DNA of 64,000 bases. Source: an uncultured cyanobacterium. GTDB lineage: Bacteria; Cyanobacteriota; Cyanobacteriia; Cyanobacteriales; CAWCAG01. Below, piece by piece: positions 17,544 through 22,106 of this stretch. Location: NCBI GenBank assembly GCA_963793425.1, contig CAWCAG010000007.1, forward strand, positions 800,001-864,000. Direction: 5' to 3'. Positions within the stretch are counted from its first letter, which is position 1, and each line of letters begins with the position of its first letter. Both the position numbers and the translations under genes were made by a program. Under the pieces are notes generated by a model, which saw only the letters and a list, made by a program, of their open reading frames with translations, ran no database searches and was not told the DNA's origin.

Positions 17544-19349
17544 ATGGCTACGTTTAAGCATCTGCTCCGCCCCTATCGTCCCTATCGTACCGTAGCAATC
17601 TTTAGCATTGTTGCTACTGGTATTTTAGAAATTGCTGATTTAGTTGTTCCCTACGCCATTGGTCAAATTCTTAATGTTCTTTCTCAACAGCCTATAGATA
17701 AACCGATACAGAGTCTAACTAATCTTGTTGCTAATCTTACCCCTATTCAGGAAGGAAAACTTCTCTCTTTAGGGGTTTTGTTAGGGATAATTTTCTTAAT
17801 TAATGTCGTCAAAGCCCCCATTCAACCTTGGGCTGTTAACTGGTTTCATTGGGCGATCGCCCTCAAATCTCGTCGTGATCAATCAGAAGCCGTAACAGCA
17901 AAAATCCTCAGCTTACCCTTAGAATTTTACGATGAACATAATCCTGGTCGCATTGCTGGGCGGGTAGCAAGGGGGCTAACCAATCAGACTTGGACTTATC
18001 CAGAAATTGCTGGGCAATTGCTTCCTAAATTGATATTGGTGTTTGGTATTTTTCTGCTTATTCTGTTTCTAGAATGGCGTATTGCTATTGCTTTTATTAT
18101 CTCTTTCTTGCTCATTCTTTCCCTAACTTTACGGAATTTGCGCCGTTTAATTCGTCGGGAAAAGAGTCTTGATAAATATATGGAAAGTACAGAAAGCCAT
18201 ACTTCAGAATTAATTACTAACATCAAAACTGTTAAAGCTTTTGCTACAGAAGCTGAGGAATTACAAAGGCAAAATCGCAGACTTTCTAGAGAACTTAAGG
18301 TTATTGTTGATCGTATTCATAGGGGTTATACAAAACTAGAAAGTAAACAGAAAACCTTAATTCAATTGTGTGTATTTCTCGTCCTTCTCTCTACCCTAAT
18401 TGCCACCCTGAAAGGAGAAATATCTTTAGGACATTTCGTAACTATTTTAACGGTTTCTAGTATGGCTTATGCAGAACTAGAACCGATTAGTTCCCTCGCT
18501 GAAATATTTGCCCGCCGCTATGCTTCTATGTTACGTTTTCACGATTTTATGCAGCATCCCCTTGGTGAAGATGCAGCTAGTTTAGACATAACAAAACAGC
18601 ATAGTTATCGCTTTACCGGTAAAGTGGAATTTTCTCATCTTAACTTCGGTTATGATTCCCAACGTCTAGTTCTTAAAGATATTAACTTTCTTATTGAACC
18701 CTATCAAACTATAGCTTTAGTGGGGCGTTCTGGTTCAGGAAAATCAACTTTAGTTAAGCTTTTGTTCCGTTATTTTGAGCCTAACCAAGGGCGCATTTTA
18801 ATAGATGGGGAAGATATTCGTGACCTAAACATTGCTAGCTATCGCCGTCGTTTAGCGATTGTTCACCAGGAAGTTGATGTTTTCAATGGTACTCTTTTAT
18901 CTAATCTCACTTACGGAAATCCTCACGCCACTCAAGAACAGATAGAATCCGCTTGTAAAATTGCTAGGGTAGACGAATTTATTCGTGAATTTCGAGATGG
19001 TTACTATACCGTTGTGGGAGAAAGGGGAGTACGTTTATCAGGAGGACAAAGACAGCGTTTAGGCATAGCTAGGGCTTTATTAGTTGATCCTGATGTTTTG
19101 ATTTTTGATGAAGCTACTTCCAGTTTAGATTATGAATCAGAACGTTCTATTCAACTAGCAATGAGGTCAATTTTTGGTACGCGAACAACTATTATTATTG
19201 CCCACCGTTTAAGTACAATCAGGGAAGCAGATAAAATTGTTGTTTTAGATTCAGGACGTATTGTTGAAGTAGGAAGTCATGAAGAGTTGTTGCAGAAACA
19301 AGGGCTTTATCAGCGTTTACATTATTTGCAAGAAACAAAAATGTCTTAA
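17544..19349 (+). CDS. ABC exporter, fused permease/ATPase
   Basis: N-terminal TM domain; GRSGSGKS, LSGGQRQR, IFDEATSSLD. Confidence 0.93.
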   Translation: MATFKHLLRPYRPYRTVAIFSIVATGILEIADLVVPYAIGQILNVLSQQPIDKPIQSLTNLVANLTPIQEGKLLSLGVLLGIIFLINVVKAPIQPWAVNWFHWAIALKSRRDQSEAVTAKILSLPLEFYDEHNPGRIAGRVARGLTNQTWTYPEIAGQLLPKLILVFGIFLLILFLEWRIAIAFIISFLLILSLTLRNLRRLIRREKSLDKYMESTESHTSELITNIKTVKAFATEAEELQRQNRRLSRELKVIVDRIHRGYTKLESKQKTLIQLCVFLVLLSTLIATLKGEISLGHFVTILTVSSMAYAELEPISSLAEIFARRYASMLRFHDFMQHPLGEDAASLDITKQHSYRFTGKVEFSHLNFGYDSQRLVLKDINFLIEPYQTIALVGRSGSGKSTLVKLLFRYFEPNQGRILIDGEDIRDLNIASYRRRLAIVHQEVDVFNGTLLSNLTYGNPHATQEQIESACKIARVDEFIREFRDGYYTVVGERGVRLSGGQRQRLGIARALLVDPDVLIFDEATSSLDYESERSIQLAMRSIFGTRTTIIIAHRLSTIREADKIVVLDSGRIVEVGSHEELLQKQGLYQRLHYLQETKMS

Positions 19350-19392
19350 AGCGAAGGGCTTTTGATTTTTAGATCCGAAGAAATATTATCAC

Positions 19393-19456
19393 GTAAGGGC
19401 GGGTTTTAAGTTAAATTGTGAGATTAACATTAAACTAAATAAACCCGCCCCAATAC
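19393..19456. repeat. REP/REPIN-like palindromic repeat
   Basis: GTAAGGGCGGGTTT...AAACCCGCCCC arms around an AT-rich spacer. Confidence 0.65.
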
Positions 19457-19484
19457 ACAAATTTAGCTGGGCTACGTTACTTGA

Positions 19485-19700
19485 GAGGGTAATTTGTGTT
19501 TTGACATCCTCCCCGACCTAGAAGGTACGGGGATTCCAATTTAGAACAATTCTAACTGGATAGTTGACGTTTCATAGGTTGCTGCTACAGTTGTAGTCTT
19601 ACACCTGCCTCCACGTCCGTTTCTTGCTCCGCGTTCCCTTGCGCCTTTCGGCGGCGCGGGTTCGGTGCGCTTTAAAGTCTCAGGGTGTCCCCCCGCGACT
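19485..19700 (-). ncRNA. Putative TnpB omega/reRNA (scaffold over the tnpB 3' end and right end; guide from flanking DNA)
   Basis: Inferred from known IS200/IS605 architecture; boundaries approximate. Confidence 0.45.
19620..19670 (-). repeat. 51-nt GC-rich structured insertion in tnpB (copy B)
   Basis: Removal restores ETL-NGRGG; shares CGCAAGGGAACGCG with copy A. Confidence 0.8.
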
Positions 19701-20515
19701 TTGATATTTACAGCAGCGTTAACATCTCTGTCATGAACTGCACCGCAGTTCAAGCAAGTCCATTCTCTAATAGAGAGTTCCTGCTTACCACCTCTGAAAC
19801 CACAACAAGAGCAAGTTTGTGATGTTGGTTCCCATCTATCAATTACCCTAAATTCTCTACCATACATTACTGATTTAGCTTCTAGCATCGTTCTAAAACT
19901 ACGCCAACCTAAATCACTAATTGCACGGGACAACTTACGGTTTCGGAGCATTCCCGATACGTTTAAATCTTCTAAGATTATCGTTTGGTTTTCACGAATT
20001 ATCTTAGTTGACAGCTTGTGCAAGAAGTCGTTTCTAGTATCTTTAATTTTGACGTAAAGTTTAGCTACTCTTTTTCTGACTTTTTCTCGTCTCTTACTAC
20101 CTTTCGTCTTTCTGGCAAGGTTACGTTGTAGTTTTCTGAGCTTCTTTAGTTTCTTTTTTAAGGGTTTTGGGGCTTTGATTTTCTCTCCGCTACTCAATGT
20201 GGCAAAGTCGGTTATTCCTAAGTCTATTCCTACGCTTGAATCGCATTTAGGTAAGTTTTGTGGTTGTATTTCAACTACGAAGCTTATGAAGTACCTATCA
20301 GCACTATCTTTGATTACTGTTAGAGATGTAGGAGTTGAGGGAAGTTCTCTTGAGAGTATAGGGTTAATGTTACCAATTTTAGCTAGGTAAACTTGTTGCC
20401 CTTCCATTCAGAAGGCTGATTTGGCAAATGCTGCACTTTGTTGATTACTTCGCTTTTTAAACCTTGGTGGTTTGACTTTCTTGCCTTTCCTTTTACCTTT
20501 ACATGAGTTGAAGAA

Positions 20516-20566
20516 GCGGATGCGACCCCGCGTCGGCGAAAGACGCAAGGGAACGCGCACCAAGCA
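20516..20566 (+). repeat. 51-nt GC-rich structured insertion in tnpB (copy A)
   Basis: Removal restores AYRN-FFNSCKGKRKG; opposite orientation to copy B. Confidence 0.85.
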
Positions 20567-21190
20567 GTTTCTGTAGGCTTTGGCTAGGTTTCTTAAGGTT
20601 TGCTGTAAGGGGACTGCTGATACATCTCTTAGCCACATTCTTTCTTCACTCTTCTTGGCTATGGTTAACAAGCTAGATAGTTTGTTGTAGCTTAATGCTT
20701 TGCCTGCACTTTGGCATCGTGCCAGAGCATCATTCCAGACGATGCGGATACAGCCAAACAGTTGAGCTAGTTTTGTTTTCTGCTCCTTTGTTGGGTAAAA
20801 TCTGTATCTGTATCTAGCTTTCATGTTGGTTGCAACAGTTGCTATTGGCAAATTATGTTTATTGTACCTGAAAAAATTAACTAATCCGCCCTAAAACGGC
20901 GGGGTTTTAAACCTTTTTTTGTTTTGATAATTATCTCATCCAAGTAAAAGTTAATCTAGTTTCAAAAAAAATATTCTGTTGGAGTGGGGCTGGGAGCTTT
21001 CTTTAAATTAATCAAGAAGGTAAACACTTAACCTGGAAACTTTTATATAATAATTCGGTACTTACATAGCTATAACTTATTAGCTGCTAACTCAATGAAT
21101 TGCAACCTTTACGTATTTTCCTTAGTCATCAGCTATTAATAATAGTAATTTGCGCCTGTCCCCTAATTTGGAAAATAACCAAGGAAAACT

Positions 21191-21709
21191 ATGAAGCTAA
21201 ATATATTCTCTGCTTCTTTAATCGCTACGGTATTTTCTCTGGTTGCCACACAAGCACAAGCCGCCGAGAAAGTAATCTTGAAATATCGCTTTCTTCGCGA
21301 ATCTATTTCTGTACCAGAATTGACTACCTTCGCAGAAACCGGAGAACTTTCTTCTTCTCTCAATGCTTATCTTGGTCTGGCAAATAAGGAACCTGATGAT
21401 TTAGAAGAAGCCTTAACCAAAGAAGTTAAAGTTAATGCTATCCTGCTATCAAAAATCCTTAACACCACACCAGGGGAAATGATTCTTGATCAATTGAGTG
21501 AAGTAATTCATACTCCTACCCAAAGGGCAAGTCGCCAATCTTTGAGGAGCGCTTTAGTGAAATCTGCTCTACCCGATGGCAAGATTACTTTACTTGAAGT
21601 ATTGCAAAATTACCCTACTCAAGATGTGATTGTTGAAGGAGAGCGTTTAGCTGAAGCCCTAGCCAAAATTGAACAGTTGACAGGACTAATTCCTAATATC
21701 CGCTTCTAA
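21191..21709 (+). CDS. DUF1400-domain exported protein
   Basis: Signal peptide, AAEKVILKY..SISVPELTTFAETG, ITLLEVLQNYPT. Confidence 0.85.
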   Translation: MKLNIFSASLIATVFSLVATQAQAAEKVILKYRFLRESISVPELTTFAETGELSSSLNAYLGLANKEPDDLEEALTKEVKVNAILLSKILNTTPGEMILDQLSEVIHTPTQRASRQSLRSALVKSALPDGKITLLEVLQNYPTQDVIVEGERLAEALAKIEQLTGLIPNIRF

Positions 21710-21714
21710 TTTGT

Positions 21715-21921
21715 TTAGTAAGCTAAAGTCTCTAAAGTTTCTCGTAAATAGGAACGAACTTGAACATCAAGACTTTCCTTTTCTAGTTCTTGGTTATTAA
21801 CAAGCTGTTCGGTGCGCCAACGTTTAAATCCAGAACTATTAGCGATCGCTTGCTTGAGATTTTCCCAAACTTCACTATCCTGGGAAAATGAATCGGAAGA
21901 TGCAACAGATGAACTTAGCAT
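21715..21921 (-). CDS. Small conserved cyanobacterial hypothetical protein
   Basis: WENLKQAIANSSGFKRW..YLRETLETLAY motif (recalled family). Confidence 0.7.
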   Translation of the reverse strand: MLSSSVASSDSFSQDSEVWENLKQAIANSSGFKRWRTEQLVNNQELEKESLDVQVRSYLRETLETLAY

Positions 21922-22106
21922 TTTATATTTTTAACTAATAACCAGCAATTATTACTTCTAGGATAACTTAACGAAGCCTGATAGTGCATACCATGAATTA
22001 CGCAATTGAATTAATTAAAGATTTGCATAATTTATTTCAACAACTGTGAGGCATTGCTGTTAATTAATTTCATAACTAAGAAAACTTTTATTTGCTGTAT
22101 AACAGC

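Follow-up and report, generated by a model that had tools for sequence, protein, structure and literature searches.

How two short, G+C-rich and mutually related segments came to lie within a single tnpB gene, and what kind of element they represent, is the question raised by a 64,000-nt stretch of DNA from an uncultured cyanobacterium (assembly GCA_963793425.1, contig CAWCAG010000007.1, positions 800,001 to 864,000). The whole stretch is called the window, and positions refer to it unless another contig is named. The gene (19541..20851, minus strand) belongs to an insertion sequence (IS) of the IS200/IS605 type that encodes TnpB only and holds both segments (19501..20926, minus strand; a conserved block of 1426 nt common to its paralogues). 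An original prediction, made by a model from the letters alone, had described them as related, structured inserts of a mobile unit. Two related units were found where it had put them, with the same letters and strands and with 35 of 51 positions being G or C in each (0.69). There is good reason for confidence that both belong to one family of hairpin elements which are 51 nt long, rich in G+C and strand-specific, and each of which inserts as a complete unit. This family of structured insertion elements is widespread and apparently undescribed.

Copy A (subtype A1) lies on the plus strand at 20515..20565, with a placement that can be shifted up to 20517-20567. It is 51 nt long, reads AGCGGATGCG...CCAAGC and is antisense to tnpB. 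Copy B (subtype B) lies on the minus strand at 19620..19670 (placement up to 19623-19673), is also 51 nt long and has the sense orientation of tnpB. Copy A contributes 17 residues (CLVRVPLRLSPTRGRIR) between AYRN and FFNSC of the protein. Copy B contributes 17 residues (KRTEPAPPKGARERGAR) after ...GHPETL in the C-terminal tail of TnpB and is located 12 nt upstream of an omega-RNA-like match at the right end of the IS. The 13-mer CGCAAGGGAACGCG is common to both copies and occurs exactly twice in the window. When up to two mismatches were allowed, four matches were obtained in the window compared to 0.65 expected, and none of 100 shuffles reached four. Neither copy has a stop codon in any of the six frames. 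Because all six frames are open, the stop-free frame that is used is a property of the unit and not of these two sites. The covariance model built for the family scored copy A with 75.6 bits and copy B with 71.9 bits.

The IS is present in the genome in many copies and fragments, of which the 11 fuller ones were aligned. Three clean gaps of exactly 51 nt appeared in this alignment. Site 1, which is occupied by copy A antisense to tnpB, is filled in two of the 11 copies (the window copy and C1:9433) and empty in nine. Site 2 lies in the loop of the zinc ribbon and is filled in sense orientation in two copies, the window copy being empty. Site 3, the position of copy B in sense orientation, is filled in five copies and empty in six. 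In the empty copies AYRN is directly followed by FFNSC at site 1 and PETL by NGRGG at site 3, which is the uninterrupted text that had been predicted for both positions. The units are therefore insertions with exact 51-nt empty sites. Their placement is ambiguous by 2 nt for copy A (AG repeated at the junctions) and by 3 nt for copy B (AAA repeated). For copy B, an edge at 48 or 51 nt had been left open; the ambiguity of 3 nt was confirmed, but the length is 51 nt and not 48. Metagenome contigs from four runs of one study showed both exact 51-nt skips relative to the window, with ambiguities of 2 and 3 nt, in all four runs; these contigs are short and may derive from empty paralogues, so that polymorphism of the locus and a paralogue are indistinguishable. 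In comparison to the solved ISDra2 TnpB (PDB 8H1J), insert A falls between residues 96 and 99 and has no counterpart there. The alignment to the solved protein stops at ...ETL, and insert B follows the last aligned residues.

Copies A and B each fold on their own strand into one common three-tier hairpin. Single-sequence z-scores for this fold are weak (-1.8 for A and -1.3 for B), and the hairpin claim therefore rests on covariation across copies. The unit consists of 5'-AGCG, an outer stem of 6 bp, GA, CCC-GCGNC, a loop of 7, GNCGC-AA-GGG, AAYG, the other side of the outer stem and (C)AAGAN-3'. Conservation is seen in an unpaired A, in the AA bulge and the AAYG loop, and in the blocks CCCCGCG and CGCAAGGGAA, whereas the stems differ between copies. 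Among 72 distinct copies from several genomes, 97.7% of the pair cells were standard compared to 84.9% in shuffles, changes on both sides were observed in 11 of 14 pairs, and 101 cells were compensatory compared to 16.6 in shuffles. None of 500 shuffles reached any of the observed values, and pairing fell to 20-53% in controls with slid partners. The 72-copy alignment was fitted to the covariance model, which favours structure; a MAFFT alignment of 11 copies followed the same trend. The compensatory differences noticed originally between the two copies extend to the family. Since G-T/T-G cells (15) outnumber A-C/C-A cells (3) among the distinct copies, the data suggest that it is the AGCG... 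strand that folds, in single-stranded form. This supports one half of the earlier proposal, a fold of single-stranded DNA (ssDNA) or RNA; movement via such an intermediate is something that we only infer. A G-to-C change (CGCAAGGG to CCCAAGGG) by which a stem pair is broken was seen in C9:241213, C9:297230, C9:320650 and C5:77641, and it recurs across two subtypes (B and A2). A search of Rfam families at E up to 1 over window positions 18500-22000 returned HgcC as the sole match, beside the units, and none on them. A likeness to domain V of group II introns, seen in the AGC start, the 2-nt bulge and the GAAA of the loop, was rejected after consideration; across copies the loop is no conserved GNRA tetraloop, and no Rfam intron match was obtained.

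Five nested copies were found. The AA bulge received three of them (GCA^AG) and the loop two (GAA^AG), and the inserted unit is exactly 51 nt long in each. An AGCG start was combined with an AAG tail in 46 of 73 distinct contexts. In these 46 contexts the preceding base was A in 37 cases; the unit was followed by AG in 21 and by AA in 14. A^AR is accordingly the landing site, and two readings are possible: an element of 49 nt that duplicates 2 nt, or one of 51 nt that makes no duplication. The junction repeat measures at most 2-3 nt, and the sole inverted repeat is the unit's own outer stem of 6 bp. Wherever the empty or host form is known, the insertion measures 51 nt. A shorter form of 45 nt, with an outer stem of 7 bp and no AAG tails, was seen in heptamer arrays. 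Variants whose loop is GTAA contain a single stop, in one of the frames. Within this genome, the inner part was always contained in a full unit (20/20) and the outer part was never found alone. Some variants have kept the outer shell with a different inner hairpin, namely C3:18338 (51 nt) and L026, L028-L030, L049 and L058 (52-nt span in the covariance model). The constant length despite other inner hairpins speaks for a length-constrained unit. All this agrees with the claim of a discrete, structure-conserved unit that is larger than the small dispersed repeats (SDRs) of cyanobacteria and has no terminal inverted repeats (TIRs) beyond its own stem and next to no target duplication. In one copy (G000:C5:1069263-1069310), the AAYG loop is replaced by a different small hairpin (GGCGAAGCCGTTGCCGAAGGCTA...). 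Because this hairpin has three copies in the genome, including C1:22688 and C9:1078474, it is a second small dispersed hairpin family.

The genome was searched with nhmmer and covariance model R1, which gave 20 strong and 3 weaker copies (23 matches of the model). All nine copies of subtype B are at site 3 of IS copies or fragments. Subtype A1 (three copies) occurs twice at site 1 and once at the junction of an internally deleted IS (C7:576512), subtype A2 (three copies) at site 2, and subtype A3 (three copies) in three near-identical IS1 copies just upstream of the DDE_Tnp_IS1 domain. A diverged copy of 51 nt with another inner hairpin lies in an IS630-family gene. The remaining four (A4, A5, C5:1069273 and C3:70023) are located in intergenic DNA rich in heptamer repeats. 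Six of the ten independent sites in this genome are in transposase genes (four in tnpB, one each in IS1 and IS630). One tnpB IS family holds four of the ten and covers 16.4 kb or 0.31% of the genome; the binomial probability of at least four hits in this space is about 2e-8, and about 1e-5 if the permissive space is five times smaller. The target motif is not denser there, with 49.5 AAG per kb in the tnpB IS family and 47.6 per kb genome-wide. The enrichment in transposase genes is real. Of the suspected targeting of IS200/IS605 elements, this excess and the concentration in one tnpB family hold, but the units are also found in IS1, IS630 and IS701-like elements, in ordinary genes and in heptamer arrays. 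The deleted IS (G000:C7:576360-576880) resembles a palindrome-associated transposable element (PATE). Its left flank comes from IS position ~174, its right flank is that of site 2, and the A1 unit exactly occupies the deletion junction. This suggests either recombination between two units or a deletion made upon insertion.

Further copies were found in relatives as well. With the covariance model, the family was detected in 21 of 61 genomes sampled from the order to which this cyanobacterium belongs; among high-quality genomes the count was 18 of 56, and among genera 15 of 50. An even sample of the phylum with 151 genomes gave six matching genomes at E 1e-7, all of the same order; in this sample no match was obtained in the other orders, nor in any of the 17 genomes of f7, the family of this order with the most genomes sampled. 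Named genomes were subjected to a pattern scan, in which 80 loci out of at least 123 matching stretches were evaluated; this led to 36 covariance-model matches in 34 loci, all titled cyanobacteria. Among the matches listed, the titles were Xenococcaceae, Waterburya, Hyella, Xenococcus, Okeania, Dapis, Crocosphaera, Baaleninema and ESFC-1, and pattern matches in other phyla did not pass the covariance model. Viral contigs yielded one clear and one weak match (E 4e-4) among 80 loci of 96 pattern matches.

Outside this genome, 28 of 64 matches had no open frame of at least 100 aa across the unit. Pfam was searched with 37 frames. Eight were TnpB with the unit at several positions, open through it over 343-447 aa (the 343-aa frame extends to the end of its locus), and a ninth resembles the N-terminus of TnpB by eye only. 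Two further frames were DDE_5 (IS701-like) and one was IS630. The other hosts comprised a response regulator with a nested double unit, YoeB, GH38, MerR, an antidote protein, a PDZ protein, Uma2 and an ABC permease. The MerR-family gene offers filled and empty forms of an ordinary gene: SGCDPASPTGARERAPS or a near variant is present in the query and in three protein clusters, and orthologues of 88-91% identity have a gap of exactly 17 residues at the unit. The MerR orthologue P0002 has six extra residues (GVYPRM) within the loop of the 17-residue insert, which may be a further small insertion into the element. The sense orientation was found in 23 of 28 identified frames, including five sites of this genome (P ~5e-4 under an assumption of independent frames that does not hold). 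This excess may reflect A-rich coding strands, better-tolerated hydrophilic peptides in the sense frame or the insertion process. Arrays containing copies were AGTCAGA, AGGGAAT, AGGGAAC, AGGCAAC and TGGTGAT. Those beside L103, L069, L107 and L100 (heptamers or octamers) repeat pieces of the element, namely AGGGAAT, AGGGAAC and AGACGCAA, and such arrays may grow from element sequence.

Between IS copies, the units are identical at 50-51 of 51 positions, while the flanking 100 nt are 64-95% and the whole IS 68-91% identical. The chance of at least 50/51 identity at the divergence of the flanks is between about 1e-5 and 2e-2. Substitutions are present within 10 nt of the units; with substitutions so close, this does not look like long conversion tracts. 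The identity of the units could be due to constraint, to recombination between copies or to site-specific re-insertion. An identical A1 unit is found at two different places, tnpB site 1 and the deleted-IS junction C7:576512. In the sister genome G001, four IS630 copies are 100% identical and carry the unit inside an open frame of 301 aa, and multiple IS701-like copies of G036 bear it as well. These cases show that element-bearing insertion sequences kept multiplying. One subfamily of the IS701-like elements of G036:C1 (e.g. 2216596-2217747) has ~410 nt extra shortly after the unit in comparison to the other subfamily. No empty sites were seen for IS1 in this genome, for IS630 in this genome, G001 and G002, or for the IS701-like elements of G036, where all copies are filled. 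Copy A5 had no clear orthologous region in the comparison with the sister genome.

Several other explanations for the two segments have to be weighed. That they are native, lineage-specific loops of TnpB would agree with their position at loops or tails of the solved structures and with both being in frame, but exactly 51 nt are absent from nine of 11 paralogues at site 1 and from six of 11 at site 3, by which this explanation is refuted. In addition, the unit is found in IS1, IS630, DDE_5 and MerR genes and in non-coding DNA, and the reading frame crosses copy A on the unit's antisense strand. Practically nothing is left of this idea. The unit might also be a pile of nested, already described SDRs of 21-27 nt. 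Its architecture is nested, some copies combine the same outer shell with a different inner hairpin, one copy holds an unrelated small hairpin, and self-nesting and heptamer-array contexts are traits said to be typical of SDRs. The inner part, however, was never found outside the full unit in this genome and the outer part never alone, new insertions are whole 51-nt units, and variants with other inner hairpins keep about the same length, which makes the pile of SDRs improbable. A repetitive extragenic palindromic (REP) sequence mobilised by a REP-associated tyrosine transposase (RAYT, also TnpA-REP) of the HUH type would likewise be a strand-specific imperfect hairpin with conserved bulges. 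Two RAYT-like genes are present in the genome, one of which fits subclass 2.4 as outlined in PMC6006769, and REPs within genes are described in PMC3733652 and, for the cyanobacterial subclass 2.4, in PMC6006769. In contrast, the GTAG/CGTC tag is absent from the unit, both RAYT-like genes are flanked by other repeats of the GTAG type, and Y1_Tnp does not separate genomes with and without the element. A REP origin is accordingly held to be unlikely.

The units could further be mere passengers, i.e. old and rare insertions without own mobility today that were spread by IS copying and recombination. In agreement with this, each tnpB site has one subtype in mosaic IS copies with two types of right end, all examined copies of IS1 (3), IS630 (4 in G001) and the IS701-like element are filled, and most copies in this genome became numerous through IS copying. 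Five nested whole-unit insertions are difficult to reconcile with such a history, as are the many distinct sites in unrelated genes and heptamer arrays. The same applies to MerR, which is filled in three protein clusters and empty in ~90% identical orthologues, to the identical A1 at two different places, and to units with 50-51/51 identity amid 64-95% flanks and with substitutions within 10 nt. Immobile passengers are considered a minor possibility. Finally, a dedicated enzyme might not be needed if a replication template switch at AAG microhomology copied the unit and returned at AG. A junction identity of 2-3 nt (AG, AAA) was present at every site with a known empty form, and the unit ends and most flanks bear AAG or AG. 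Yet a microhomology of 2 nt is very weak for exact, repeated events, and the unpaired bases conserved across distant genera (AA bulge, AAYG loop) point to recognition by a protein. Template switching is thus a very improbable source of the family.

For the preferred reading, a family of hairpin elements inserting as whole units, the course of events is as follows. The tnpB element of the window was hit at two sites and the same IS family in the genome at two more, and the units were then copied along with the IS. A protein acting in trans might recognise the folded single strand (ssDNA, possibly RNA), which might be integrated at A^AR in unpaired nucleic acid in a manner similar to the reaction of IS200/IS605 or of REP and RAYT. 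Because the window units have no stops in any frame, genes that are hit remain open whichever way the unit is oriented. The excess in transposase genes would be a mixture of true bias, neutrality of the sites and hitch-hiking on insertion sequences within and between genomes. A bolder version regards the family as a self-mobile hyperparasite of transposons, which integrates at A^AG in single-stranded nucleic acid, prefers transposase genes (tnpB above all), leaves them functional since its length is 51 nt and no frame is closed, and rides insertion sequences within and between genomes. Copy B, lying 12 nt upstream of the omega-RNA-like match and preserved at 50-51/51 identity among IS copies with only 68-91% identity overall, might in this version even have been co-opted by the IS. 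This version is speculative and rather doubtful.

Several observations weigh against insertion of whole units by a mobile family. The ten independent sites are few, and the fourth tnpB site is derived solely from the deletion junction. At each tnpB site a separate subtype (A1, A2 or B) is found, and the IS is mosaic towards its right end, which comes in two types; these site-specific subtypes are more readily explained by inheritance and by recombination between mosaic IS copies than by repeated drawing from a common pool. That diverged IS copies share a single subtype at a given site may be a sign of recombination or constraint and not of repeated targeting. The idea of an ssDNA target is weak, as the loop and the bulge contain the only internal AAG of the unit and sequence preference alone explains the nesting. 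No insertion was seen as a polymorphism at a unique locus, and the spacer of copy A4 could not be aligned to the sister genome G001.

The search for a mobilising enzyme belongs to the same side of the balance. A co-occurring mobiliser had been suggested, but among the Y1/RAYT candidates examined no such gene was found, as they did not track the element or had their own repeats. Pfam Y1_Tnp was detected in 54 of 61 relatives irrespective of the presence of the element. The element-bearing genome G035 had no Y1_Tnp at E 1e-5; this carries little weight since the scores of RAYT-like genes are close to that limit. L291 (G000:C5:1762006-1762446), a Y1 HUH gene present in a single copy, has the motifs DHIH, WQ and YVGNQKIHH and is similar to the little-known subclass 1.2 by its Y...Q..HH pattern (subclasses 1.2 and 2.4 follow the scheme of Quentin et al. 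2018, PMC6006769). Orthologues of 55-66% identity were found in 14 other sampled genomes. L291 was rejected as the mobiliser: at an identity of at least 55% it is present in 15 genomes, and only three of the 21 element bearers (G000, G001 and G036) are among them. The first RAYT-like gene (G000:C5:515687-516271; NHIH, WQ and YIVNNP) fits subclass 2.4. The second one, L289 (G000:C7:992204-994572), encodes 215 aa with DHFH, WQ and YIHYNP and is flanked on both sides by a long composite repeat beginning with GGTAGGGTGTGTTAG, which contains a perfect 12-bp hairpin. Both were rejected as well, being flanked by their own GTAG-type repeats (GTAGGGGCGGGTTT... and GGTAGGGTGTGTTAG..., respectively) with none of the 23 covariance-model matches nearby.

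The host gene itself consists of two open reading frames, 20408-20851 and 19541-20407, which are split by an in-frame TGA at 20408-20410 (minus strand); the paralogues have TCA at that codon. At position 20409, an alternative base was found in all four metagenome runs aligned to the window. This tnpB copy is a pseudogene unless the TGA is read through. It contains the Pfam domains HTH_OrfB_IS605 (E 3e-19), OrfB_IS605 (E 5e-34) and Cas12f1-like_TNB (E 3e-24), and its product matches the solved ISDra2 TnpB (8BF8, 8H1J) with E ~4e-47. The omega-RNA-like region (19488..19608, minus strand) is located at the right end of the IS and reaches ~13 nt beyond it. The underlying match to Rfam HgcC (RF00062) is weak, with 24.5 bits compared to a gathering score of 50 (E 0.0084). 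Metagenome contigs that join 19500 to 20927 and thereby skip the 1426-nt IS were present in two of four runs. In the sampled population, this locus or one that looks like it also exists in an IS-free version. A dispersed hairpin repeat (GGGCGGGTTT...AAACCCGCCC) adjoins the right end of the IS at 19398-19452 and occurs at ~25 other places in the genome. Repeats of this type, starting with GTAGGGGCGGGTTT, also flank the RAYT-like gene at G000:C5:515687-516271 and are probably its cognate REP; the IS of the window may have landed beside a REP. The genome has 40% G+C and contains 2588 occurrences of the highly iterated palindrome (HIP1) hallmark GCGATCGC compared to ~30 expected, which identifies it as cyanobacterial.

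The family provides clean material to study how DNA units of a few dozen bases, such as SDRs and many REP-like repeats, move. It combines an exact 51-nt unit, an A^AG landing site, nesting of whole units, filled and empty forms in one genome and a covarying fold, and a protein would be expected to recognise its conserved unpaired bases. Transposase genes, tnpB among them, can bear inserts of 17 residues while their frames stay long, which is relevant for annotation, for TnpB engineering and for the reading of length differences among cyanobacterial orthologues. Should the bias for transposase genes prove to be true targeting, the family would be a parasite of parasites.

No published description of the family was found in the literature searched, which lay mostly outside the subscription journals and excluded supplements, and a full-text search with 10-mers of the unit returned unrelated primers only. 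It apparently has not been described before. With the SDRs it shares the very small size, the structure, the dispersal in cyanobacteria, compensatory changes, self-nesting and a location in tandem heptamer arrays (copies A4 and A5 included). Elhai and co-workers are said to have introduced SDR1-8 of Nostoc punctiforme and relatives in 2008 as repeats of 21-27 nt, reportedly with self-nesting, heptamer-array contexts and fold-preserving compensatory changes. In contrast, the present unit has 51 nt (45 nt in arrays) and moves as a whole. It is also found in records of Xenococcaceae, Waterburya, Hyella, Okeania, Dapis, Crocosphaera and Baaleninema, whereas SDRs are reported from Nostocaceae only, PMC5861425 stating that no SDR-like repeat was found outside this family. 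The distinction from SDR1-8 is made by descriptions.

REPs and their paired form, the REP doublets forming hairpins (REPINs), are similar in being short, G+C-rich, imperfect and strand-specific hairpins that are sometimes intragenic (PMC3116915, PMC3733652 and PMC6006769). REPs inside genes are known from PMC3733652, and PMC6006769 reports REP insertions within genes for the cyanobacterial subclass 2.4. According to the same three sources, REPs are thought to be processed as single strands by a trans-acting HUH enzyme. A REP is recognised by a tag, GTAG or CGTC, that is left unpaired at one end of its palindrome (PMC3733652). The 51-nt unit has no such tag; it starts with AGCG, ends with CAAGAN, and its reverse strand starts with NTCTTG. 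Furthermore, the units are not paired as in REPINs, are not beside RAYT-like genes, and lie mostly in genes and IS elements and not downstream of genes.

IS200/IS605 elements and PATEs resemble the family in their hairpin-dependent biology, the lack of classical inverted-repeat ends and the insertion beside a short sequence that is duplicated hardly or not at all. The host element belongs to that family, and one unit is placed at a PATE-like junction. However, the unit is one hairpin instead of distinct left and right ends, and it is far smaller than PATEs. It has no similarity to the left or right ends of the resident IS in the alignment of IS copies. It is also found in genes of IS1, IS630 and IS701-like elements, and these elements do not transpose as single strands. 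MITEs, short for miniature inverted-repeat transposable elements, are, like the units, non-autonomous small repeats of cyanobacteria found through filled and empty sites. MITEs such as Nezha measure 100-400 bp and have TIRs of 15-30 bp that match an IS and duplications as direct repeats, as stated in PMC3184786. Even with a wider size range of about 70-400 bp they are larger, and the 51-nt unit differs from them in size, TIRs and duplication alike. Rickettsia palindromic elements (RPEs), which insert in frame, have ~100-150 bp and are not known outside Rickettsia. Compared by description, the 51-nt unit is shorter, and it is open in all six frames in the two copies checked. The SDRs of Nostocaceae, the REP/RAYT repeats and these in-frame RPEs are the closest kinds to the 51-nt family.

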